Shown: one piece after another, positions 7,984-41,358 of the stretch
How positions within the stretch are numbered: the first letter of the stretch is position 1
Layout: every line of letters begins with the position of its first letter
The notes under the pieces: model-generated
Seen by the model: only the letters and a program-made list of their open reading frames with translations
Databases searched by the model: none
Told to the model about the DNA's origin: nothing
Assembly (NCBI GenBank): GCA_963842525.1
Contig: CAWJGT010000009.1
Location: 128,001 to 192,000 of the forward strand
Origin: an uncultured Holophagales bacterium
GTDB taxonomy: Bacteria > Acidobacteriota > Thermoanaerobaculia > Multivoradales > UBA5704
DNA: 64,000 bases
Reading direction: 5' to 3'
Translations under genes and position numbers: made by a program

Positions 7984-8223
7984 CTAGCCGTTCGGGTCGA
8001 TGCCGTGGCCGCGATCGGGATCCGAGGACTGCAGACCGTCAGGGTCGATTTCGTGATCCAAGAGCACGAAGGCGGTCCGGACCAGATGCCAGATCTGCTC
8101 GAGGACGGACGGGAAGGCCGCTTGAGGTCGGGGCAGGCGCTCGCCCGCCGCGAGGGCGAGCGGAGGGGCCGCGACCGCCAGGAGAAGGATGAGAGCGAGG
8201 GCGCGGACCAGAGGATGTCGCAT
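7984..8223 (-). CDS. Small secreted peptide with two xxIDPxG repeats at the C-terminus
   Basis: AAGGAG RBS before ATG 8223; signal peptide; LDHEIDPDG and RGHGIDPNG*. Confidence 0.75.
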   Translation of the reverse strand: MRHPLVRALALILLLAVAAPPLALAAGERLPRPQAAFPSVLEQIWHLVRTAFVLLDHEIDPDGLQSSDPDRGHGIDPNG

Positions 8224-8525
8224 GAGCAGCTCCTTTTCCGGGCACGGCAACCCCGGGGGTTCCGTTCAAGGGGACCTCGGGCCGGCCCTACAAGGAAGAG
8301 TGCGGGGAATGCCGCCTCGCCAGCCCGCCCCGGATCTGGTGGACGCCGAGGGGGTGCCTATCACAGCGTAGAAGGCATCCCGGGATAAAGTCGCCCGGCA
8401 GGGCGGAAGGAACAGCGGCACATAGAGATAGGCCCCCTTTTCTCAAAAAGCCTCGGGCGTTTTATCCGTCGATCTTGGACGTCCAAGCAGCCCACGGGGT
8501 GCCTTATTCTCCTTCTCTGGTCGCG

Positions 8526-8554
8526 TTGACTCACCCGACGCAGGGGAGTATGCT
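8526..8554 (+). promoter_or_regulatory. sigma70-type promoter facing cassette array 1 (Pc-like)
   Basis: TTGACT, 17-bp spacer, TATGCT. Confidence 0.65.
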
Positions 8555-8606
8555 CTTCTAAGTTGAGGAGCGACAGGATGTTAGCGCCAGGATAGCGAAG
8601 AGGGTT

Positions 8607-8663
8607 GAGGCGCTTATACGTGGCGTAGAAGCCCTATGCCGTCGCTCCTCGTAGCTGTTGGGC
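8607..8663 (+). other. attI-like head site of cassette array 1
   Basis: Ends in core GTTGGGC (8657-8663); clearly similar to 36066-36124. Confidence 0.55.
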
Positions 8664-8694
8664 GGTGAAACTTCACAAGATGCCTGGAAGCGCC

Positions 8695-10038
8695 ATGGAT
8701 ATTCTTAAGCTTCTCACAGAAGCTGTTCTGCAGATATTAGTCGGCTATCTTGAGTTTGCCGTGGATTTGTTTAGCCTTCAAGGATTAAGCCCGTACATCC
8801 TCTCTGATAAGGTCAACCCTCGCCTGCTCTCATATTTTATAGTCGGATCGACTATCGCTTATTTCCTTACTAAGGGAAAATCGCTCCCGGGCCTGTCTTC
8901 TTATACAACTAACTCTGAGGAGCGCAGGGCGAGAGATTTGGAAAAATTTGGATTCACAGTCTTCTGGATCTTTCTCTACGCGGCCTCCTCTCACGGCGTT
9001 CTACTCTTGACTAGCAGTCTTTGGCCAGCCGCGAAGATTGGGACCGCGCGCGATACTCTAAATGCCTGGCTGGCGTCGGCTGCAATCATGCTTCCCCTGG
9101 GTGTCATCTCGCTTAGGTTGAGTAGCGCCTCCTCATTATTCATAGCTCAGGGCAAGAAAGAAACGTACAGTGCCTCTGATTGGTTGAATGACAGACCTTG
9201 GATTCCACGCCATGAGCAGACAGCAGGAAATTTGGTAGCTGGAATGGCTTTGCTCGCGCTTTCGCTTTGTATCGACATTGTTATTTTTGTTTACTATGGC
9301 CTGACATTGGCGCGTATGCATCGACTGGAGCCTGTAGTTGGGCTTCTGCCGGGACTGCTGTATTTTTCTGTGGTGGCAGTTGTAGTTGTCATCTTTTGGC
9401 TGAGGGCCGGGTTCGAGAAACGGCGCACGGCAAAAATTATCAGGGCGAGACGGCGCCGCTTTCAAAATCCATATATGCTCACTGGCTCAGGACAAGTAAA
9501 CTCTGCTCAAGAGGTTGGTGCCTCGGAGGTAGACGGAAAGCCAATCAGCGCTTGGATAGAAATCGCAAATGGAGGACACTGCGACCCTCCTGTCTATAGG
9601 AGACGCAATTGGTGGCATCTGCGGAAGGTCTGCATTAAGGAGGCAGCATGGGAGTACGACCTTGCTGCACAGCTCAATGCTATAGAAGCACTTGGCAAAT
9701 CTGAGAGCGAGGAGGCATTGGATTTTCTGTCCACGCTCCTGATATCTGAATCATCGGAGTCGATGGATGCCGACACTATTACAGAAGCGGTGCGTTTTCC
9801 AAGCGCTCGAGGGCCTTTGTATGAGCACCTTTGCTATACCCACTCGGAAAACGAGATGGACTACGATCCTTGGACTGATGAGCAACATCGAGAGCAGCGA
9901 AGTAGAATTCAAGGACATCAAGTTATAAGAGAGGCAGAACTAAAGCTGTACATGCACAGAAAGAACCGCGCAAAGCTTGCGCGGACACGCCCAACCAACG
10001 CCTCCAGCGGACAGTCGGCTTTGCCGTCTGCACGCTAA
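8695..10038 (+). CDS. Gene cassette 1: low-GC membrane protein of unknown function
   Basis: Several TM segments plus a soluble C-terminus; bounded by GTTGGGC and GCCCAAC. Confidence 0.7.
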   Translation: MDILKLLTEAVLQILVGYLEFAVDLFSLQGLSPYILSDKVNPRLLSYFIVGSTIAYFLTKGKSLPGLSSYTTNSEERRARDLEKFGFTVFWIFLYAASSHGVLLLTSSLWPAAKIGTARDTLNAWLASAAIMLPLGVISLRLSSASSLFIAQGKKETYSASDWLNDRPWIPRHEQTAGNLVAGMALLALSLCIDIVIFVYYGLTLARMHRLEPVVGLLPGLLYFSVVAVVVVIFWLRAGFEKRRTAKIIRARRRRFQNPYMLTGSGQVNSAQEVGASEVDGKPISAWIEIANGGHCDPPVYRRRNWWHLRKVCIKEAAWEYDLAAQLNAIEALGKSESEEALDFLSTLLISESSESMDADTITEAVRFPSARGPLYEHLCYTHSENEMDYDPWTDEQHREQRSRIQGHQVIREAELKLYMHRKNRAKLARTRPTNASSGQSALPSAR

Positions 10039-10056
10039 GGCGCCACAGCGTTGGCC
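9989..10056 (+). mobile_element. Integron attC site
   Basis: R'' GCCCAAC ... CTCCAGCGGAC ... CGCTAAG ... R' GTTGGCC; R'' is the exact complement of the upstream core GTTGGGC. Confidence 0.8.
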
Positions 10057-10075
10057 GGTAGATGGGAGTGAATGT

Positions 10076-10981
10076 ATGAGATTGTACAAATACCTCTCTC
10101 CAAGGCGCTGCGATGTTCTTAGCGACCTACATGTCCGCTTCACCCAGGCCATAGAATTCAATGATCCGTTCGACGTCACGCCCGTCATGAAGCAGGTTGT
10201 TCCACTAAGCCCCGTAGCGAAAGATTTAGGGCGGCTTAGTCCGGGAGTTTTAGGGCATCTTGCCGACTTCCTGGGGCATGACGCTATTCCACCGTTGAAA
10301 CCCCGTGTTATCGATATGCCACCGGAACTCTCGCTGACGTTCCAACTAACGTTCGCGGAACAATTTGGTATTCTTAGTCTTAGCGAAGTGCCCACTAGCT
10401 TGCTTATGTGGTCACACTATGCTGATCGGCATCAGGGTTTCGTCGTTGAGTTCGACGCGACCAATGCCTTCTTCGCTAGGCCGACTGCTCGCGCCGGAGT
10501 CGGCCGACTGTTGAAGGTAGAATATGCCCGCGAACGACCTGCGGTTATATTCGATCCCGAAGCGCATGCAGCGGACCCGGAAGCTACCCGAAGCCTGCTC
10601 ATTCGACAGGTCCTACTTACAAAGAGTTCTGAATGGGAATATGAACGAGAGTGGCGAATGGTACTTCCACTCACTGATTCGAAGCTCTACCCGCACAGAG
10701 TCGTGAGCCGGTGTCATCTCTTCCCGCTGCAGCCTGAAGCCATTACTGCAGTTATTATTGGCGCCCGAGCAACAGAAGAAACAAAGGCGGCCATAAAACA
10801 AGCACTCACTTCGAGTGCTATACTTAGACACGTACAAATCAGCCAAGCTCGTATTGATGATAGTCGCTTCGGATTATGCTTCGATGTGGTCACTAGAAAA
10901 GGCAGCGCGGTTGAGCAATCGCCATATACGCGAGCAGGAAACCTTGGTTCGGCCAACCAAGCGGCTCCAGCGGACGGCTGA
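10076..10981 (+). CDS. Gene cassette 2: DUF2971-domain protein
   Basis: LYKY, FNDPFD, LLMWSHYADRHQGFVVEF and TKSSEWEYEREWR motifs. Confidence 0.85.
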   Translation: MRLYKYLSPRRCDVLSDLHVRFTQAIEFNDPFDVTPVMKQVVPLSPVAKDLGRLSPGVLGHLADFLGHDAIPPLKPRVIDMPPELSLTFQLTFAEQFGILSLSEVPTSLLMWSHYADRHQGFVVEFDATNAFFARPTARAGVGRLLKVEYARERPAVIFDPEAHAADPEATRSLLIRQVLLTKSSEWEYEREWRMVLPLTDSKLYPHRVVSRCHLFPLQPEAITAVIIGARATEETKAAIKQALTSSAILRHVQISQARIDDSRFGLCFDVVTRKGSAVEQSPYTRAGNLGSANQAAPADG

Positions 10982-11012
10982 CGCCGCGCGCTGAGCCGCC
11001 ACAGCGTTGGGC
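10951..11012 (+). mobile_element. Integron attC site
   Basis: R'' GGCCAAC, GCTCCAGCG/CGCTGAGC L boxes, R' GTTGGGC; R'' complements the cassette start GTTGGCC. Confidence 0.85.
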
Positions 11013-11354
11013 GTAAAGCACGGAAGTGTCCACATGACACAAGCAGAGATTTCCGGCATCTCACCCTTTGCAGCGGACAGCGCACGGGCGTTCGTCGGCC
11101 GGCAAGGATGCCGGCGCTCCCAGCAATCACGAGTAGGCGGCGCCGACGCGACATGGGCGGGGGTCTACGCGGCGCAGAGGGCACCGGCGCTGTCCGGCTT
11201 TTGGGCGTAGCGGCGGTGATGAAGGGCATGCGTCACACGGAGTCTCTGGCAGTCCGCTGAATTCGCGAGAAAAGCGCGGCTGAAAAACGCCGTGCTCCCT
11301 TTGGGTCCGACGGACCGCCGGACAACGCGGCAGGCGGCTGAAGCTCGCGGCAGG

Positions 11355-11765
11355 TCGATCGGAATTTTCCAGCGCGCCCACGGAAGCGCCGCGCGCTCTT
11401 GGAACCCTCCAACGAGCCGTCGAAAACCGCGGCATGCACTCATGGAATCTCCTCTGCCCGCCGGAAGTCTCCGGCCCGCCGCCGGAGAACCAGGCAGGCC
11501 GTCGAAGGTGCCGGCAGCCCGTTGAAAATTCTCCAGCGCGCCAGCGGAAAACGCCGCTGGCGGCTGGAATTTTCGCCTGGGCCCCAGAATTCTCCAAAGG
11601 CTCCCGGAGTTTTCCGAAGCCCCATTGGAATTCTCCAACGCTGCAGCGGAAAAACTACCGTGGCCCGTTGGAATTCTCCAACGCGCCGCCGGAAAACGCT
11701 GTGCGCCGTTGGAATTTCTGGGAGACGTTGGGTTTTTACCGCGAGCCGTTGGAAAACTCCTCAGC
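11355..11765. repeat. Degenerate ~21-bp-period repeat; best units CGTTGGAATTCTCCAACG (near-palindromic)
   Basis: GGAA...CC units recur at about 21-bp spacing (e.g. 11564, 11585, 11606, 11625, 11646, 11668, 11689, 11709). Confidence 0.7.
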
Positions 11766-11947
11766 TCATCGGAGTGTCCGGAGGACGGCTGAAAAGCTCT
11801 GCGAGCGCACGCGCCTTCGTGTTTCGGCGCAACCGCCCCCGATCCTAGTGGATGCGGACGTCCTCACTCGCGGCGAAGCTCGTCTGTTTCATGCCAGGAC
11901 AGCCGTGGTGTAAGCTCCGCTGAGCTTCGGCGATCCTGAGGCGAACG

Positions 11948-18515: not shown

Positions 18516-19906
18516 GCGTCCAGGGCCCGAACGGCGGGCCGGCCCCTGGCAAGGTCGTCGCGGTCGTCGGCGGTGGCATCTCAGGCATCGCCGTTTCCTA
18601 TTTGCTCCGCTGCCGCGGCATCGCCTCGGAAATCCTGGAGCAGTCCGATGGTCTCGGAGGACGGATCGGGTCCTGCAGGCTGGGCGAGCGCCTGCTTGAT
18701 TTCGGAGGCAAGAACATCGGGCGCCGCTACCACCGGTTCCGCGAGTTCACCACCGCCTGCGGAGACAATCCCTACGAGTACTTCGGAATCAACTCGTCGC
18801 AGGTGCGCGACGGCAGGATCGTGACTTTCGACAGCGGGCGCCGATGGGCGAGCCTGCTCGACCTTGCGCGTCGCTGCCGCCGGCGCGACCTTTTCCGCTT
18901 CGGCCGGATGTGCCTCGCCGTCAAACGGGACGAGCAGAACGGCTATCTCGGGTCGTCCTACTTCGGCGCGCTCGCCGAGCGCTTGGACGATCCGCCGGCA
19001 GGGAGCTACTTCGGCGACGAGCTCTGCCGCCGGCTCGTCCGCCCGATGAGCGTCCGCATGAACGGCGCCGAGCCCGACGAGATCTACCTCGGCAACTTCG
19101 GGAGCAATCTGCGCATGGTGCTCGACAGCTACGACCAGCTCACCTTGGGTATGCAGCGGGTTCTCGAGCAGTTCGAGCAGACGGCTACGATCCACCTGGG
19201 TACGCGGGTCGAGTCTCTGGCCATAGGGGCCGGCCGGGTGGCGGGATTGCGCGTCACGGGCCAGACGGGTATTGCCGAGGAGCGCTTCTACGACGGTATC
19301 GTGCTCGCGACGCCCGCGGTGGCGAGCGCCAGGATCGCGGCTTCCGCCGCCTGCCGCCTGGCCGAGCTGCTGGGCCGCGTTCACTACTTCCCGGTGGCGC
19401 TCATTCTGGCCGAATACGCGCGGGACATCTTCACGCCGCAGGTACGCGCCCTGGTGTTCGACGAGGGAGAGCCACTCAGCAATGCCGGCAGCTACGGGAT
19501 CCACGACCTCAACATCGTCCGCTATACCTTCAGCGGCCGGACGGCGCGGTCGTATCTCCGCGGCGAGGTGGACATGGAGTCTCTTCTCCGCTTGGGCGAA
19601 GAAAGGCTCAACCGGCATATTCCCGTCGACGCCCGGGAACGCCTGTGCTTCGTCGGCCGCCATTTCGAGCTGGGCCTTTGCGCCTATACACGGCATTACG
19701 GGCGGTTTGCCGGCGAGCTGCAAGCGGAGCTTCGCGCTCTCCCCGGGCTCTATCTCTCAGGCGACTACCTCTGCGGTGCCTCGATCGAGGCGTGCTTCCG
19801 AGCCGCCGAGAAGTGCGCTGCGGCCGTAGCCGCCGACCTTGCCGGGCCTTGTTCCACCAAGACCGCGCTGCACCGGACAGCTGGCCTAGCGCCCATCCGC
19901 CGGTGA
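18512..19906 (+). CDS. FAD-dependent oxidoreductase (protoporphyrinogen/amine oxidase superfamily)
   Basis: VVGGGISG, GGR, GDY..GASIEAC; GTGA overlap with the afsA-like gene. Confidence 0.85.
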   Translation: MSVQGPNGGPAPGKVVAVVGGGISGIAVSYLLRCRGIASEILEQSDGLGGRIGSCRLGERLLDFGGKNIGRRYHRFREFTTACGDNPYEYFGINSSQVRDGRIVTFDSGRRWASLLDLARRCRRRDLFRFGRMCLAVKRDEQNGYLGSSYFGALAERLDDPPAGSYFGDELCRRLVRPMSVRMNGAEPDEIYLGNFGSNLRMVLDSYDQLTLGMQRVLEQFEQTATIHLGTRVESLAIGAGRVAGLRVTGQTGIAEERFYDGIVLATPAVASARIAASAACRLAELLGRVHYFPVALILAEYARDIFTPQVRALVFDEGEPLSNAGSYGIHDLNIVRYTFSGRTARSYLRGEVDMESLLRLGEERLNRHIPVDARERLCFVGRHFELGLCAYTRHYGRFAGELQAELRALPGLYLSGDYLCGASIEACFRAAEKCAAAVAADLAGPCSTKTALHRTAGLAPIRR

Positions 19907-19931
19907 GCTCACGAGCCTCAGGAGAATAGCA

Positions 19932-31995: not shown

Positions 31996-32205
31996 AGGCG
32001 TGCTGCACGCACGCGCTGGCAAGAGATAAGGGCCGAGCTGGCCCGGGATCCGCGTCCCTTCCGCCAACTCTCTCCAGAGGAGCGGCGCGATCGGCTGCAC
32101 CGGCTGCAAGGAATCGGCCGGGGTCTCCTTTCCTCGAGCGAAGAATTCGCACGCCGCAAGGCCAAAGAGATCGAGAGCGAGGAGCGGAAGTTTGCCCGCT
32201 GACGC
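31996..32205 (+). repeat. Near-identical copy of 35260-35469 (3' half of an antitoxin gene)
   Basis: Direct sequence match from AGGCGTGCTGCACGCACGC to TTTGCCCGCTGACGC. Confidence 0.9.
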
Positions 32206-32234
32206 CGCGGCTGGCACCAATCCGGGCCGATCTC

Positions 32235-33445: not shown

Positions 33446-33587
33446 CCTCCGGCCGCAGCCCCATGTGAGCGGTTGGCCTTTAGCGCGGCCGCACGACCCG
33501 AAGCTGTTCGGCTGGCACCTCCGCTGGGGTAGGATTGGAGTGCAAGTGGCAAACGGATAGCACGGCGTCGACGAGAGCCCGGCGGTG

Positions 33588-33720
33588 CGGGCGATCATGC
33601 CGCCGAACGGTCGGCACCGAGCCGGACTTCGCGGCTCGCGTAGACCAGCGCGAGGCCCATCAGGGCGAGCAAGCTCGCGGCGGCAGGCGGATGAAGAATC
33701 CCGGCAGCCAGCCGCCGAAG
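33588..33720. repeat. Chimeric copy of exuT pieces (39822-39920 plus 40461-40494)
   Basis: Direct sequence match. Confidence 0.85.
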
Positions 33721-34990: not shown

Positions 34991-35109
34991 TTGGCGAATG
35001 GGTGCGCTGGCGGGGCGGCCCTGCCCCACAGGCTGCGGTGGTAGACTAGGCGCAGATTCGCCGGCCATGGACTTTCCGTCGGCGACCGGTCGATCAGGAG
35101 AAACCCGCG

Positions 35110-35466
35110 ATGGCGACACACCAGATCGAAGTGGTGATTCCGGAGGACCGGCGCCTCGTCGTCGAAGTTCCCGAGACGGTCCATGCGGGGCCCGCGACGC
35201 TGATCTTCGTTACGCCCTTCGAAGGCCCGGCGGAAGCCGAAGAGCTGCCGGAAAGCGCGAGGCGTGCTGCACGCACGCGCTGGCAAGAGATAAGGGCCGA
35301 GTTGGCCCGGGATCCGCGTCCCTTCCGCCAACTCTCTCCAGAGGAGCGGCGCGATCGGCTGCACCGGCTGCAAGGAATCGGCCGGGGTCTCCTTTCCTCG
35401 AGCGAAGAATTCGCACGCCGCAAGGCCGAAGAGATCGAGATCGAGGAGAGGAAGTTTGCCCGCTGA
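35110..35466 (+). CDS. Putative antitoxin upstream of vapC
   Basis: AGGAG RBS; C-terminal LSSSEEFARRKAEEIEIEE; overlaps the PIN gene. Confidence 0.65.
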   Translation: MATHQIEVVIPEDRRLVVEVPETVHAGPATLIFVTPFEGPAEAEELPESARRAARTRWQEIRAELARDPRPFRQLSPEERRDRLHRLQGIGRGLLSSSEEFARRKAEEIEIEERKFAR

Positions 35467-35690
35467 CGCTGTCTACGTCTTCGATGCCTGCGCTATGATT
35501 GCGCTTCTGCAAGCGGAAGCAGGAGCGGGCGTGGTGACCGACCTCCTGCAAGAGGAAAACCGATGCCTCGTGCATGCGATCAACGTCTGCGAGGTCTACT
35601 ATGACCTGTACCGCCGTGACGGCGAAGAGATCGCGAACGGCGTCAAGGAGGTCCTCGAGGGCTATGGTTTCGAGGTGGTTGAGGAAAAGG
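35456..35690 (+). pseudogene. vapC: VapC PIN toxin, truncated by the tandem 170-bp repeats
   Basis: YVFDACAMIALL..E.G, AINVCEVYY; C-terminal half absent. Confidence 0.75.
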
Positions 35691-36065
35691 CCTTTGACGA
35701 GGCAGCCAAGCTTCCCGAGAAGAACCAAGATGCGCTCGGTTCCTTGTTGCTCGACGAGATTGAAGTGGAGCGGCGACGGGAAGATCAGATCTCTGGAATG
35801 CCGTGGTCAGAGATCCGAGAGCGCTATCCACACCAGTGGCTGTTGCTCGAAGCCACGGAGGCGCACTCGACGACGTGCCGAAGCTTCTCCAGGAGGCCTT
35901 TGATGAGGCAGCCAAGCTTCCCGAGAAGAACCAAGATGCTCTCGGTTCCTTGTTGCTCGACGAGATTGAAGTGGAGCGACGACGGGAAGATCGAGAGCTC
36001 TGGAATGCCGTGGCCAGAGATCCGAGAGCGCTATCCACACCAGTGGCTGTTGCTCGAAGCCACGG

Positions 36066-36124
36066 AGGCCTCTTATGCGGCGCGTAGGAGCCCTAAAAGG
36101 CTGTTGCTCCTCGTAGCTGTAGCC
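36066..36124 (+). other. attI-like head site of cassette array 2
   Basis: Aligns to 8607-8663 (CTTAT.CG..GCGTAG.AGCCCTA...GCTCCTCGTAGCTGT); core G-TAGCC is one T short of GTTAGCC. Confidence 0.55.
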
Positions 36125-36154
36125 GGAAGGATTTTAGCTCTGGAGGACGCGAGC

Positions 36155-37141
36155 ATGCGTCTATGTACGGTATCTCTCATACTGGCGGCGTCGTTTCTAG
36201 GATCTGCGGCCAGTGCACAATCTCCGAAGGAAAAGGCGGAGAACCTCGGTACATGCCTTTCTGGTCAATATCCGAGTCTGTGTCGGCACGAATGGCTCTC
36301 TCCCGAGGACTTGCGTCGGACGAAAGAGGCAGAGCGGCTGCAGAACCTCGAGACCTGTCTGAGTGGCCTCTATCCGAGCCTCTGCAAGCGCGACCTCCTC
36401 TCTGCCGAGGAGCGCGTGCGAGCCGACGCTGCAGAGCGTCGTGAGAACCTGAAGACCTGTCTGGCAGGCACGTATGCGAGTCTTTGTAAGCACGCTCTAC
36501 TCTCGCCAGAAGAGCGGCTGAAAGTCGCGGAAGCTGAGCGGCTAGCGAACCTCAACACCTGCCTCGCTGGGCAGTATCAATCTCTCTGTGACCATTCGAA
36601 GCTTTCTTCAGAAGAGTTGAGTCGTGTGCGCCAAGCTGAGCGGAATGCTGTTACCTCCGAGAAGCGGCAGCCAAGCAGTCAACGTCAACCCTCTCGCGCG
36701 GAGCGAGCCTGCGAGTACGGCCACTGGATCGAAACCGTTTCGGATGATGGCGAAGTCATCGTACTCGAAAACGGAAGTGTTTGGGAAGTTGATTCCATCG
36801 ACACTGTGACGTCTTCGCTTTGGCTGCCAGTTTCTTCCATTCTTATTTGTGATGGTCGGCTGATCAACACTGACGACAACGAAGTGGTTTCTGCCGAGCA
36901 GATTTCGGGTGACTCCTCGTTGGGTGGAACTGGGTCGAGACGCCGCTATGAAGTTCAGGCATCCTCCGATGACGAAACCTTCATCATTAACGGTGAGGTC
37001 TTCAAAGCTAAGACGTACTGCTTTGGCATCTCGAAAGGGGACGAAGTGGTCTTCATCGAGGGAAATGCAAATGGCGCTTGCGCCTCAGCAGCATTCGTCG
37101 TCCTTCGCAGCTCTAGAGAGTGTGCTGTGTGGTGCGAATAA
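36155..37141 (+). CDS. Cassette-borne secreted protein with four 34-aa Cys repeats and two small beta-domains
   Basis: GGAGG RBS, signal peptide, (NLxTCLxGxYxSLCxxxxLSxEExxRxxxAER)x4. Confidence 0.8.
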   Translation: MRLCTVSLILAASFLGSAASAQSPKEKAENLGTCLSGQYPSLCRHEWLSPEDLRRTKEAERLQNLETCLSGLYPSLCKRDLLSAEERVRADAAERRENLKTCLAGTYASLCKHALLSPEERLKVAEAERLANLNTCLAGQYQSLCDHSKLSSEELSRVRQAERNAVTSEKRQPSSQRQPSRAERACEYGHWIETVSDDGEVIVLENGSVWEVDSIDTVTSSLWLPVSSILICDGRLINTDDNEVVSAEQISGDSSLGGTGSRRRYEVQASSDDETFIINGEVFKAKTYCFGISKGDEVVFIEGNANGACASAAFVVLRSSRECAVWCE

Positions 37142-37174
37142 CCTCGCTGACAGGGTCGTGGCGGCCTTACGGGC

Positions 37175-37235
37175 GGCTAACATGGTCGGATGAGCGGACA
37201 TCTGAAGCCGCCGCTCACCTCCAGCAGCATTACGC
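37175..37235 (+). mobile_element. Degenerate attC site
   Basis: R'' GGCTAAC, TGAGCGG/CCGCTCA inner arms, R' ATTACGC (G>A). Confidence 0.65.
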
Positions 37236-37257
37236 GTCCTTGGTATAGGTTGGAACA

Positions 37258-38064
37258 ATGGTAAACCGCGAGATTCCCAGCGACGATCTCATACGACTTA
37301 CAGATTCGCACTTTGCGGCCCTCCTTGCAGGCTCTATGCCCGAGGTATGGTTCACGGGTAGCGCAGCTCCCCAACATCCTTGGGGTACAATGACCTTCAT
37401 AAGGTATGGCGAACGTGTCCTCGGAATCACCTGTAACCATGTCGTTCAACATGCCGAGAATACTGAGTTCCCCGCGTTCATGCTGGCACTTGGGCGACAC
37501 ACGCCACTCACAGGTCCCTTGGTGGCGCGTTCAAACAACGACGATCCTGACTACCCTTTTGACATTGCGGTGTTCGAATTAGATGCGGACCAGCTGGAGC
37601 GAGCCGGCAAAACTCCCTTGCTACTGGACGATATATCGACCCCACTCCAAGAAGGAGAAATCGCGCTGGCTGTGGGCTTTCTGGGGTATGCTAGGTTGAA
37701 AGTTGATGAGCAGTACATGACTCACAAAACTTGCTATATTTCCGCGACATGCCACTCTTCCTCATCTCGTAAATTTATACTTTATGAACAACACCCGAAT
37801 CAGCCGCATGACTTCAGCGTCGGGGGGATGAGCGGTGGGCCAATCTTCCGGATCACCTCCTCGGAGAGCTTTTCTCTTGCCGGCATCATCTTTGAAGGCA
37901 AGGCCCGAGCTGACGCAGAGCATGGCTGTAGCATCGAGGATCTCTGGATATGGGGTTTTCCACTCAACGACAATCTGCTTCGGGATATTCTAGAGCACCG
38001 TGGCGTACCGTGTAACACGCCGACGCACCGGACACCTGGGCTCGCGCCCAGGCGCAGGAGATAA
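37258..38064 (+). CDS. Cassette-borne trypsin-like serine protease
   Basis: ITCNHV, DIAVF and GGMSGGPIF catalytic triad motifs; low GC. Confidence 0.75.
   Translation: MVNREIPSDDLIRLTDSHFAALLAGSMPEVWFTGSAAPQHPWGTMTFIRYGERVLGITCNHVVQHAENTEFPAFMLALGRHTPLTGPLVARSNNDDPDYPFDIAVFELDADQLERAGKTPLLLDDISTPLQEGEIALAVGFLGYARLKVDEQYMTHKTCYISATCHSSSSRKFILYEQHPNQPHDFSVGGMSGGPIFRITSSESFSLAGIIFEGKARADAEHGCSIEDLWIWGFPLNDNLLRDILEHRGVPCNTPTHRTPGLAPRRRR
38010..38055 (+). mobile_element. Truncated attC (left half only)
   Basis: GTGTAAC ACGCCGACGCACCGGAC + CCTGGGC/GCCCAGG hairpin, cut off at GATAAGTGCC. Confidence 0.5.
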
Positions 38065-38206
38065 GTGCCGGCGGCGCCGGCGATAAGTGCCAGCCAAGTC
38101 AAACTTCCTGCAGCGGCAATCGCAAAGTGGCAACTGGATCGAAGAGGCTCCCGACGAGTTCCTGTGCTCCCTGTTAGGGGACATCGCGCCAGAGATTTCC
38201 GCTATC

Positions 38207-38977
38207 ATGGCATTCGTCAAGGCGTACTTCGATGAGAGCGACAGGAGCAACGCTGGCGGATGCGACATCTTCGCCGTAGCTGGAGTGGTATTCACTCGCA
38301 AAGCGGTAGATAGGTTTATCTACAAGTGGCGAAAGATGCTTGGTCCCGTCAACTGCTTTCATATGGCGGATCTGGCGGCCCGGCAGGGAGAGTTTAAGGG
38401 CTTGAGTGAGGTTGAGGCGGGGACTCTACTGAAGGAAGCGGTAGCGATTTTGAACCGCTACCGCCTTGCGGTAGTCGCCTGCTCATGCAGAGTGTCAGAC
38501 TTTGAGGCGCTCAAGCGTGTTCGGTTCCGAGGATTCGACTCACCCTACGCGATCTGTGCAGAATCCTGCATGATCCAGCTCGGCAGTTGGCTCAACTCCC
38601 AAAAGAACTCACCAGAGGTGGCCTACTTCTTCGAGGCGGGCCATCGGCATGCTTCGGATGCACAGTGGCTTCTAGCTCGCATAAGCGAGCACGAAGTCAT
38701 CGAGAGAGCCTACCGTTATCGGAGCTATAAGTTCCTGAAGAAGGAAGACGCCGTTCCTTTACAGACGGCCGACCTTGTGGCCTGGGAATATGCAAAGTTC
38801 CAGGACGAGACAGCGCATCGTTCTGAGAGGAAAGCTCGCGCCTCGTATGTGGCCCTTGAGGGGGCCGACAAAGATAGTTTCCTCGTGCGCCATAGGGACA
38901 AGGCCGCTCTCCAGGAGCTGATGGACGTGATCCAGCTAGCCGCAGAAATACCGGAACCGGGTAGCTCTACGCCGTGA
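38207..38977 (+). CDS. DUF3800-domain protein
   Basis: AYFDES, FHMAD, FFEAG, PLQTADLVAW. Confidence 0.8.
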   Translation: MAFVKAYFDESDRSNAGGCDIFAVAGVVFTRKAVDRFIYKWRKMLGPVNCFHMADLAARQGEFKGLSEVEAGTLLKEAVAILNRYRLAVVACSCRVSDFEALKRVRFRGFDSPYAICAESCMIQLGSWLNSQKNSPEVAYFFEAGHRHASDAQWLLARISEHEVIERAYRYRSYKFLKKEDAVPLQTADLVAWEYAKFQDETAHRSERKARASYVALEGADKDSFLVRHRDKAALQELMDVIQLAAEIPEPGSSTP

Positions 38978-39323
38978 GCAGGTCTCGCATCGACCACGGT
39001 TTCCGAACAAGCGGATTCCTCCCGTAGGGAGGACGGTATAGCAGGTTACCGGGGATGGGGGCGGCCCCTGGGCGGCCACACTGAATAAGGACACGACCGC
39101 CCCACGGGGGCCATTGGGTTCCCTATCTGGCACCGAGCCGAACTTCGCAGCGCACGGCGATTCGTCGTCGCGTCCCCAGATTGGGGTAGCCGGCTCGTGG
39201 TGGAGGCGAAGGAAGGAGGTCGCTGCCCCTCTCCAGAGTCGCTGGTGTCCTATATGGCCACGCTTCCGTACTTCCTCCGTACGTGCTATCCTTTAGGCTG
39301 GTAAACGCTGAATGAGGTGCATC

Positions 39324-39617: not shown

Positions 39618-39828
39618 CTGGCGTGTCGAACCGCCGGAGATACCGGATCATCCCTTGACCCTGTGGTTGTTCCTGCCGGCACTCCGCAAGCTGTTCGAAT
39701 CAGCCTCGTCGAGCCTCTCCACAGGCCCGAATTCCCGATAGGTAGCGTACGCTGCTTCGAACGACTGCCTCACCGGCGTGCTCAGGTGCTACTCACCAGC
39801 CAGTTTGCACACCAAGAGAGGCGGGCGA

Positions 39829-41358
39829 TCACGCCGCCGAACGGGCGGCACCGAGCCGAACTTCGCGGCTCGCGTAGACCAGCGCAAGGCCCATCAGGGC
39901 GAGCAAGCTCGCGGCGGCAGCGCCACCGGCGGCAGCGGCGACGGAGCTTTTCGTCACCGACAGGATGTAGCTCCAGTTCGCGAAAACGAGCGCGGCGAGC
40001 GCGGCGCCCACGGCCATGAGCCCCAGCCCCATCGCGAGAAGCGCGGGGCTTTGCGCTGTCCGGAGGCCCTTGTCGAGGTCGATCTGCGTGATGTTCTTTC
40101 CCACCAGAGCGCGAATCGCGATCCAGGCGAGGGGATGCATGACACCGGCGAAGATGAAGAGCGGCTTGAAGCTCCCGAGCCACTGCAACATTCCGCCCGC
40201 GACGAGCAGCATGAGCATGCCGCCGATGCCGCCGCACATGCCGCCGAACCCGACGACCGAGCCGACGGCTCGATTCGGAAAAGCGTCGGACGCCACCGTG
40301 AACATGTTGGCGGACCACGCCTGATGACACGAGGTGGCGATGCTGATGAAGGCCACGGCCGTCCACAGATCGTCCGCCATCACGCCGAACGCCGAGATCG
40401 GGAGCCCGGCCGCGAAGAGCACCATCGTGGCGAGGCGGGCGCGCGTCGCGGACCAACCGCGGCGGATGAAGAATGCCGGCAGCCAGCCGCCGAAGATGCT
40501 GCCGAGATCGGCGGCGAGGTAGATGACGAGCAGCGCCCCGGCGGCCGAGGCGAGCGTCACGCCGCGCTCGCGCTGCAGGTACGACGGCAGCCACGTGAGG
40601 TAGAACCACCACACCGGATCGGTGAGCATCTTGCCGATGCAAAACGCCCACGCCTCGCGGTAGCGGAGCAGCGACTGCCAGGGAACGTAGAGCGCCTTCG
40701 CGGGCGGCTCCTGATCGCTGCGGATGAGCTGCGCCTCTTCGGCCGACAGGCGCGGATGCTCCTCGGGCGACCGGTACCCCTTCATCCACGCCGCGAGCCA
40801 GACGAAGCCGAGCAGGCCGATCGCGATGAACGTCGCCTGCCAGCCCCACGACACGGCGAGCCACATCATCGCGCCCTGCAACATGGCGCCAAAGTTCGTG
40901 CCGGTGTTGAAGATGCCCGTGGCGAGCGAGCGCTGCCGCTTCGGGAACCATTCGGCGACGGCCTTGACGCAAGCGGGGAAGTTGGTCGCCTCGCCCAGGC
41001 CCAGGAGGAACCGCGCGAGCGCGAAGCCGAGGACGGTCGTCGCAAAGGAATGAGCCATCGCCGCGAGGCTCCACACGAGCACGCCGATCGCGAGGCCGTT
41101 GCGCACGCCGACGCGGTCGAGGAGGCGTCCCGCGAACGGAAACATGGCGGCATACGAAAGCTGAAACGCGAAGTTGATCCACCCGAACTCCGCGTCGTCC
41201 CAGCCGATGGCGTCCTTGAGCAACGGCGCCATCGCGCCGAGCGAAACGCGGTCGACGTAGTTGATGAACGTGACGAAGAAGAGAAGCGCGCAGATGTACC
41301 AGCGGAGGCCACGGATCTTCGAAACGGCCTTGGTGGCGACGGCGACGGTCTCAGTCAT
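39829..41358 (-). CDS. exuT: Hexuronate MFS transporter
   Basis: LRWYIC.LLF..T.INYVDR, EWFPKRQR.LATGIFN.G, TDPVWWFYL.WLP. Confidence 0.85.
   Translation of the reverse strand: MTETVAVATKAVSKIRGLRWYICALLFFVTFINYVDRVSLGAMAPLLKDAIGWDDAEFGWINFAFQLSYAAMFPFAGRLLDRVGVRNGLAIGVLVWSLAAMAHSFATTVLGFALARFLLGLGEATNFPACVKAVAEWFPKRQRSLATGIFNTGTNFGAMLQGAMMWLAVSWGWQATFIAIGLLGFVWLAAWMKGYRSPEEHPRLSAEEAQLIRSDQEPPAKALYVPWQSLLRYREAWAFCIGKMLTDPVWWFYLTWLPSYLQRERGVTLASAAGALLVIYLAADLGSIFGGWLPAFFIRRGWSATRARLATMVLFAAGLPISAFGVMADDLWTAVAFISIATSCHQAWSANMFTVASDAFPNRAVGSVVGFGGMCGGIGGMLMLLVAGGMLQWLGSFKPLFIFAGVMHPLAWIAIRALVGKNITQIDLDKGLRTAQSPALLAMGLGLMAVGAALAALVFANWSYILSVTKSSVAAAAGGAAAASLLALMGLALVYASREVRLGAARSAA

Follow-up and report, generated by a model that had tools for sequence, protein, structure and literature searches.

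The window considered here is a 64,000-nucleotide stretch of the genome of an uncultured Holophagales bacterium (G000:C9:128001-192000; assembly of 9.95 Mb in 34 contigs), in which two short, related sequences, referred to as heads A and B, each stand in front of an array of integron-type gene cassettes. The two heads, at 8607-8663 and 36066-36124, are present as given in a preliminary description of this DNA; they can be aligned with each other, share an exact 15-mer at their 3′ ends (8644-8658 and 36106-36120) and, as that description had stated, diverge exactly at the GTT crossover, though copy B is one T short. With up to two mismatches the 15-mer has three matches in the window versus 0.18 expected from shuffled sequences, and a head pattern of fixed spacing matched copy B alone, a 3-nt indel separating the two copies. 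The DNA 3′ of both heads has a GC content of 51-58% versus ~66% for the genome, and low-GC cassettes ending in attC sites were indeed found behind each of them, the second attC of array B being degenerate. The head turned out to be the end of a longer, multi-copy module with a predicted promoter and an attI-like site, of which copies A and B and their arrays are laid out as follows:

8343..8666, + strand: full-length module copy A, promoter and attI-like site (nhmmer E 9e-85, profile positions 4-327; flank alignment)
8526..8554, + strand: predicted sigma-70-type promoter TTGACT-17-TATGCT, directed towards the cassettes, ~100 nt before the crossover (promoter scan)
8657..8659, + strand: copy A crossover G|TT, where the copies diverge (reads ...GCTG|TTGGGC, G at 8657)
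8658..10050, + strand: cassette A1, open reading frame (ORF) 8665-10038, 457 amino acids (aa), membrane-like (attC 9989-10056, E 8.9e-11, hairpin -32.3 kcal/mol)
10051..11006, + strand: cassette A2, ORF 10076-10981, DUF2971 (Pfam PF11185 1.8e-10; PADLOC candidate PDC-S31 4.3e-40)
36068..36120, + strand: copy B head, the last ~53 nt of the module, promoter absent (nhmmer profile positions 268-319, E 4.2e-08)
36120..37229, + strand: cassette B1, ORF 36155-37141, secreted, four 102-nt Cys-containing repeats (no Pfam match)
37230..38095, + strand: cassette B2, ORF 37258-38064, Trypsin_2 (Pfam PF13365 1.3e-08)
38087..38977, + strand: probable cassette B3, DUF3800 protein (Pfam PF12686 7e-05; read by eye)

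At copy A, the bases TTGGGC (8658-8663) that follow the crossover are the complement of the R″ box GCCCAAC at 9989-9995. The A1 attC in turn ends in G|TTGGCC at 10050-10056, where TTGGCC complements the A2 R″ box GGCCAAC at 10951-10957, and the A2 attC (10951-11012, E 5.6e-18) ends in G|TTGGGC; such a chain of complements is the hallmark of integron cassettes. The product of the A1 ORF has no Pfam, NCBIfam or PADLOC match. At copy B the crossover reads ...GCTG|TAGCC (G at 36119), the G|T step at 36119-36120 being one T short, and GGCTAAC (37175-37181) lies 1056 nt past it; the pairing of G(T)TAGCC with this box, already recognized in the preliminary description, follows the same rule as copy A and its next cassette. 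The B1 attC (37175-37236; partial attC match at C9:165193-165239) carries ATT instead of GTT in R′. The B2 R″ box is GTGTAAC at 38010-38016, with one mismatch to the expected box, and the B2 attC is otherwise degenerate and contains a 22-nt tandem duplication. Just 3′ of B3 a possible short attC was seen by eye.

A genome-wide search with a head profile returned ~15 copies, and alignment of their flanks revealed conservation extending far 5′ of the 55 bp. The ~55-bp unit described initially therefore had to be enlarged: the head is the final sixth, at the 3′ end, of a conserved module of ~320 nt, of which copy A is the whole and copy B the last ~53 nt. At E<0.01, a profile built from 11 long copies detected 12 full copies, which span 280 or more of its 329 positions, as well as 9 partial ones; the copies are 70-94% alike and are located inside long contigs, and 16 of them reach the crossover region. 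Each complete module contains a predicted sigma-70-type promoter ~100 nt upstream of the terminal G|TT and aimed at the crossover, with a -35 hexamer that is identical in all 11 aligned copies and a slightly variable -10 region. In copy A this promoter (8526-8554) is the sole promoter-like site in 8200-8800, compared with 0.1 expected in shuffles. A core-like box (CTTAT..CG, GTTAG.., GTTGAGG) is directly repeated several times in the module, 5′ of the crossover, and the truncated heads B and C34 start at or within a few bases of such a box. The upstream flanks of the modules fall into groups of unrelated content, one with an anti-sigma/TPR gene next to a gene for a small secreted protein among its features, another with ~800 nt rich in a TGCGACA motif.

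Coding and RNA-based readings of the module were also considered. By eye, no conserved ORF was seen on either strand, the small minus-strand ORFs resembling high-GC noise, and a retron, riboswitch or small RNA in the leader was set aside for want of conserved structure; tRNA and Rfam scans of the window returned no matches. The head is also not an attC-type palindrome, in agreement with the initial assessment. RNAalifold gave -4.6 kcal/mol without covariation for the last 106 nt of the module (10 copies, both strands) versus -21.2 kcal/mol for 30 attC sites of the same genome, and a conserved hairpin is absent; the 10-bp stem of copy A (8565-8574 with 8641-8650), which closes the leader, is confined to one subgroup.

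The link between heads and cassettes was evaluated at 13 junctions, namely ten heads and three ends of an IS91-type element described below. The rule, that the first 6 nt after the G|TT crossover are the exact complement of the R″ box, was scored as the presence of the expected R″ 7-mer within 1.5 kb downstream, and it held at 8 of 13 junctions versus 12 of 152 mismatched pairs (7.9%). Seven of the matching junctions are heads (A, B, C1b, C6, C25:236, C3:1117 and C34), six of them with attC-type hairpins and one (C34) with a loose one; the eighth is an element end, located at an attC match, and two more element-end junctions match with one mismatch each. An iterated nhmmer search seeded with two sites of the copy A array yielded at least 52 attC-type sites in 35 clusters, and in the alignment of 52 of them the stem changes are plainly compensatory and an extrahelical base is often present. 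The cassette ends at 9989-10056, 10951-11012 and 37175-37236 have the features of attC (R″ ending in AAC, a paired stem with an extrahelical base, and GTT in R′), the last with ATT in R′. The preliminary description had proposed checking whether each copy of the head precedes a cassette; one was found at 10 of 16, directly at seven and via the element at three, and the 16 heads are distributed as follows:

Cassette with a matching attC after the head: A, B, C1b, C6, C25:236, C3:1117 and C34 (7 heads)
Element, then cassettes: C3:356, C9:1899 and C25:539 (3 heads)
Element remnants: C3:132 and C3:183 (2 heads)
Tandem module, preceded by a small gene in reverse orientation: C1a (1 head)
No convincing cassette: C10, C12 and C9:1905508 (3 heads)

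Downstream of C1a, C10 and C12 no convincing attC site was found, and C9:1905508 is a short attI fragment inside an array. The arrays behind the modules hold 1-4 cassettes each, and eight of the ten array-heading copies carry the predicted promoter, which B and C34 have lost. Among the products of head-proximal cassettes are TIR-domain proteins, a DUF2971 protein with a match to the candidate defence family PDC-S31, a trypsin-like protease, a DUF3800 protein and two without a family match. The other 25 attC clusters (24 without the array adjoining intI) lack a module and mostly consist of one or two sites.

None of the 16 copies abuts an integrase gene, so that the claim of several attI-like sites without integrase stands. 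A tblastn search with the IntI of a relative detected fragments only away from the modules; the 12 full ones all lack the neighbouring integron-integrase gene, whole or fragmentary, that is typical of attI, and no protein of this genome reaches the cut-off of the integron-integrase model TIGR02249. The only canonical intI is a pseudogene (C9:1070914-1073905, in the region C9:1070693-1073940; locus L013, 4693-7940) that is interrupted by an IS21 insertion (IstA/IstB) and whose frame jumps from the tryptophan-rich motif into the C-terminal end, which indicates that the catalytic region has been deleted. Other IS21 copies in the genome are ~95% identical to the one in intI. Four attC sites follow the dead gene 3′ on the same strand; a complete integron, with functional intI, attI and attC, is accordingly not present in the assembly. 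The best TIGR02249 matches are recombinases linked to the IS91-type element; the protein scores 238.9 bits, below the cut-off of 265, and aligns in two stretches that leave profile positions 178-235 uncovered.

This element, of 2.55 kb, encodes a 284-aa tyrosine recombinase of the Phage_integrase family followed by an IS91 transposase (NF033538, 463.7 bits). Full copies, all at module heads, are located at:

C9:1900013-1902570 (L012 6068-8620)
C3:356667-359213
C25:537196-539747

In all three the element directly follows the G|TT of the head, and both of its ends join at G|TT. It begins with TTGAAC, its 3′ end comprises a near-complementary box and a 20-bp hairpin, and behind it a G|TT is followed by three different cassette starts. 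One truncated copy and one 78-nt remnant occur at two more heads, and no copy was found away from heads in this genome. The recombinase is intact in all three copies, without stops, and shares 39.7% identity with the IntI of a relative. Its score exceeds the cut-off of the XerA/integron-integrase-like model NF040815 (232.7 bits versus 220) but remains below that of TIGR02249, and it lacks the region of the IntI-specific insertion, an extra domain of about 35 residues near patch III. Related elements are found just after intI in the relative G003, where an IS91-type element is inserted at a core-like box, and inside a cassette of a Holophagales metagenome-assembled genome (MAG); both join at TT-containing core-like sites, G|TT in the MAG and C|TT in G003. 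A search for related loci with the recombinase yielded one locus only.

The three full copies of the element are 99.92-99.96% identical to each other, whereas the modules that host them are only 71-90% alike, and the intI-less upstream flank of two of these heads is common (74-76% identity) to a third copy without the element. Since the identity of the element far exceeds that of modules and flanks, its insertion must be far younger than the integrase-less state of the heads and cannot be explained by homologous recombination. The young element at three integrase-less heads speaks for the earlier proposal that the sites would have been loaded in trans.

Comparison with related genomes places the module in the context of integrons with a canonical integrase. 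Canonical IntI above the cut-off is encoded in 13 of 41 related genomes, two of them of the same genus. A nucleotide search with the module in 40 relatives gave a single weak match, in G019, with none among the five genomes of the same genus; the G019 module homologue (E 8.5e-27) lies on a different contig from the G019 intI, beside a fragment of the 3′ end of a gene of the major facilitator superfamily (MFS). In G010 and G020, intI is followed, ~450 nt after its stop codon, by a crossover and then by cassettes, all on one strand, and the intervening DNA contains a TTGAC-17-TA...T promoter ~110 nt before the crossover and then a CTAAGTTG-type motif as in the module of this genome. The first cassette obeys the same R″ rule in both. 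G020 has one intact intI, and the 481 nt after the gene have 19 further matches in its genome, none abutting intI, three of which are 91-92% identical over nearly the full length; the equivalent region of G010 has 4 further matches. The G020 copies diverge after G|TT, and the cassette rule holds at 4 of 6 testable junctions versus 2 of 42 mismatched pairs. The preliminary description had proposed looking among relatives for one copy that abuts intI, and for the equivalent region G020 provides it.

These findings make it likely that recombination takes place at the head as the end of an integron platform module of ~320 nt, which couples a predicted equivalent of the cassette promoter (Pc) to an attI-type site and has been multiplied without the integrase. 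In integrons of this bacterial family the direction of intI transcription is towards attI and the cassettes, and the present genome has about a dozen copies of the platform, devoid of intI, each heading a short array of its own. A recombinase encoded at another locus would have placed the cassettes at these heads in trans, and the module promoter would express the first of them. With the canonical IntI dead, the system may either be frozen or be served by the intact IntI-like recombinase of the IS91-type element. The fuller picture of a dispersed integron in this acidobacterial-type lineage, with many attI-plus-promoter platforms spread over the chromosome and sharing one trans-acting recombinase, a role that would have passed after the death of IntI to the IS91-linked IntI-like recombinase, itself landing on heads as a cassette, is put forward only as a doubtful extension.

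Several observations weigh against the platform interpretation or limit its reach. The sole canonical intI of the genome is dead. The assembly of 34 contigs is 96% complete, so that an intact intI could be missing from it. Loading in trans would follow from one argument, the presence of a 99.9%-identical element at three heads that are 71-90% alike. Six of the 16 heads have no convincing cassette (C1a, C10, C12, C9:1905508 and the two at element remnants), and copy B is decayed, having lost its promoter and one T of its crossover, with A for G at the next junction and a degenerate second attC. The attC profile was built from the sites of this genome, not from the model of IntegronFinder. Similarity between the module profile and six intI-adjacent regions of relatives is weak: two beat all 200 shuffles, at less than 5 bits, three have no match and one was beaten by 3 shuffles, so that homology rests on layout and short motifs and not on alignment. 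In addition, several of the extra G020 copies keep stubs of the 3′ end of intI, 9-125 aa in length, which points to whole platforms, intI included, that were duplicated or have decayed as their origin. The multi-copy attI-type heads fit the preliminary notion of a distributed integron, but its opposition to decayed arrays does not hold, because a dead canonical integrase and copies with integrase stubs make the two compatible.

The same facts underlie the view that the heads are fossils only, that is, leftovers of complete integrons or of segmental duplications into which cassettes were inserted while an integrase was still encoded in cis, with no loading in trans. Besides the dead intI and the G020 stubs, array B with its damaged crossover, ATT junction and degenerate attC would suit such an origin, and loss of the integrase from one of several integrons is among the listed sources of arrays without integrase (Cury et al. 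2016, PMC4889954). However, not one intI fragment remains near the 12 full modules, and the intI-less flanks are 10-26% diverged within groups while the element differs by at most 0.1% between three heads, which means that insertion postdates integrase loss; we therefore hold a purely fossil origin to be unlikely, if still to be reckoned with. It is considerably less probable that the head is the attachment site of the tyrosine recombinase of the IS91-type element, which would then make the junctions in place of IntI. The three complete, one truncated and one remnant copies all at heads and none elsewhere, the intact recombinase with its 39.7% identity to a relative's IntI, and the joining of the related elements in G003 and the MAG to TT-containing core-like sites inside integron DNA are in line with that idea. 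The ordinary cassettes behind the heads nevertheless end in classical attC sites, for which IntI is the only recombinase known; moreover, the recombinase is without the IntI-specific insertion (profile positions 178-235 unmatched), the MAG element lies inside a cassette and not at a head, and the relatives with rule-obeying heads possess canonical IntI.

Two further explanations have very little likelihood. Promoter-only fragments upstream of ordinary genes, at C19:391742 and C9:68314, recall a mobile promoter or a conserved 5′ leader without a role in recombination, for which GTT would merely mark the end of a duplicated unit. We judge this highly implausible in view of the cassette rule at 8 of 13 junctions against 7.9% of controls, the divergence exactly at G|TT both here and in G020, and a leader without conserved RNA structure or any Rfam match. 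That the head could represent the right-hand part of a long attC, or the terminus of some other mobile element, is scarcely credible at all: the 10-bp stem of copy A (8565-8574/8641-8650) that would favour a long attC is absent from the other subgroups, shows no compensatory changes and lacks an R″ box with AAC on its 5′ side, and the upstream flanks differ between groups of copies.

Copy B and its surroundings form an island in the window, with the following additional features:

35456..36069, + strand: PIN-domain gene fused to the truncated head B (Pfam PIN 9.1e-07)
33587..33686, strand not assigned: left copy of a 100-nt direct repeat (96% identity to the right copy, 39821-39920)

Copy B is a 5′-truncated, point-damaged fossil. 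The PIN-domain gene contains a 206-bp tandem duplication (35688-35862 and 35894-36069; 97% identity) that ends where head B starts. The right copy of the 100-nt repeat (39821-39920) is the 3′ end of an MFS gene (39829-41358, minus strand; MFS_1 8.2e-54), and the repeat pair flanks a 6.2-kb island that holds head B. Within the window this gene end recurs at 33587-33686, 39129-39156 and 39821-39920, and at the module locus of G019 it is found four times (L048 5421-5469, 7381-7420, 8107-8512 and 9512-9622), a pattern that suggests successive insertions, each regenerating the end of the gene. A toxin-antitoxin segment (window 35041-35533, L048 6099-6592) has 95.7% identity to its counterpart in G019, a genome of another genus, far above the background similarity of the two; recent horizontal exchange is likely. 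A second, partial copy of the segment is present in the window at 31996-32207.

A few observations concern module copies elsewhere in the genome. At the start of a contig (G000:C1:376-1399), two tandem modules lie 696 nt apart in units that are 96% identical, each of which includes a small gene in reverse orientation that encodes a secreted protein and is a homologue of window 7984-8223. Some 1.1 kb 5′ of the three group-2 modules (L009, L011 and L012) is a conserved sequence of ~800 nt, 74-76% identical and without a clear ORF, that is dense in TGCGACA/TGTCGCA motifs; it could represent protein-binding sites in an array or else the decayed remains of a Cys-rich gene. Module fragments consisting of the promoter only are placed directly 5′ of ordinary genes, one of them glyoxalase-like, at G000:C19:391742-391832 and G000:C9:68314-68406, where the promoter appears to have been co-opted by these genes. 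Just past array A, at window 11300-11800, is a degenerate array of 41-62-nt units with short GTTGGA..TCCAAC palindromes, and a repeat region of similar look, by eye, lies upstream of the dead intI (L013 3689-4401). A partial attC-like match far from both heads was found at window 19865-19911 (C9:147865-147911), and a two-site attC cluster on the minus strand, 25 kb upstream of the window, at C9:102248-103282.

The significance of these findings lies in a recognizable attI-plus-promoter module that heads many integrase-less arrays in one genome, with the same spread in a relative whose integrase is alive. Should the heads prove active, integrons would not have to be confined to one locus; many expressed entry points could be supplied by a single integrase, and the number of cassettes in first position for expression would be multiplied. 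For integrons with intI directed towards the cassettes, which have received little study, the module further provides a concrete, testable sequence with which to address attI function. In the accessible text of the literature searched, no description of multi-copy, integrase-less attI-plus-promoter modules was found.

Among the closest known systems is the chromosomal integron of Treponema denticola, in which intI is transcribed towards attI (PMC3607928), each integron having one attI (PMC3607928). As with the attI and Pc of Treponema-type integrons, the cassettes here are attached to a conserved GTT, a predicted promoter is directed into the array, the first cassette begins with the complement of its own R″ box and the site forms no hairpin; G010 and G020, moreover, have the same layout directly 3′ of a canonical intI. 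The module differs from a Treponema-type attI in having no adjacent integrase gene and about a dozen copies per genome. Accessory integrase-binding repeats of attI1, DR1/DR2, are said to have been reported by Collis et al. and Gravel et al. in 1998; the direct core-like boxes upstream of the crossover are reminiscent of them, but the module has no sequence similarity to attI1. IS91-family elements with an upstream tyrosine-recombinase gene are likewise familiar from ISfinder and TnPedia descriptions. The 2.55-kb unit resembles these in its 284-aa Phage_integrase protein followed by an IS91 transposase and is distinguished by cassette-like ends and by the location of all its copies in this genome at heads.

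Cassettes inserted into secondary sites of the genome, attG (bioRxiv 10.1101/2022.09.11.507474), and delta-attI-type cassettes (PMC12901181) provide further precedents for integrase-made junctions outside one canonical attI, and the attI fragment in the C9:1905508 array is comparable; as far as these sources describe them, however, such cases are isolated insertions into unrelated sites or belong to mobile class 1 integrons, not a conserved multi-copy promoter platform. Clusters of attC sites lacking integron-integrases (CALINs; Cury et al. 2016, PMC4889954) are described as about as common as complete integrons and are defined without reference to attI or a promoter (PMC4889954). Genomes that lack IntI account for half of them, and 95% have no intI pseudogene in their vicinity; their origin, expression and uptake of cassettes are given as open questions (PMC4889954). 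IntegronFinder seeks attI only by exact match to classes 1-3 (PMC4889954), so that heads like the present ones would go unseen. More generally, the tools now in use do not recognize attI sites of other classes than 1-3. Arrays A and B are CALINs in that they are attC clusters with no intI within 10 kb (array A with two attC matches), but differ from them in belonging to a set of 10 arrays that start with a conserved attI-type site, 8 of them with a predicted promoter. Integrase-less attI-plus-Pc platforms of this kind would be a variant of the integron/CALIN theme.

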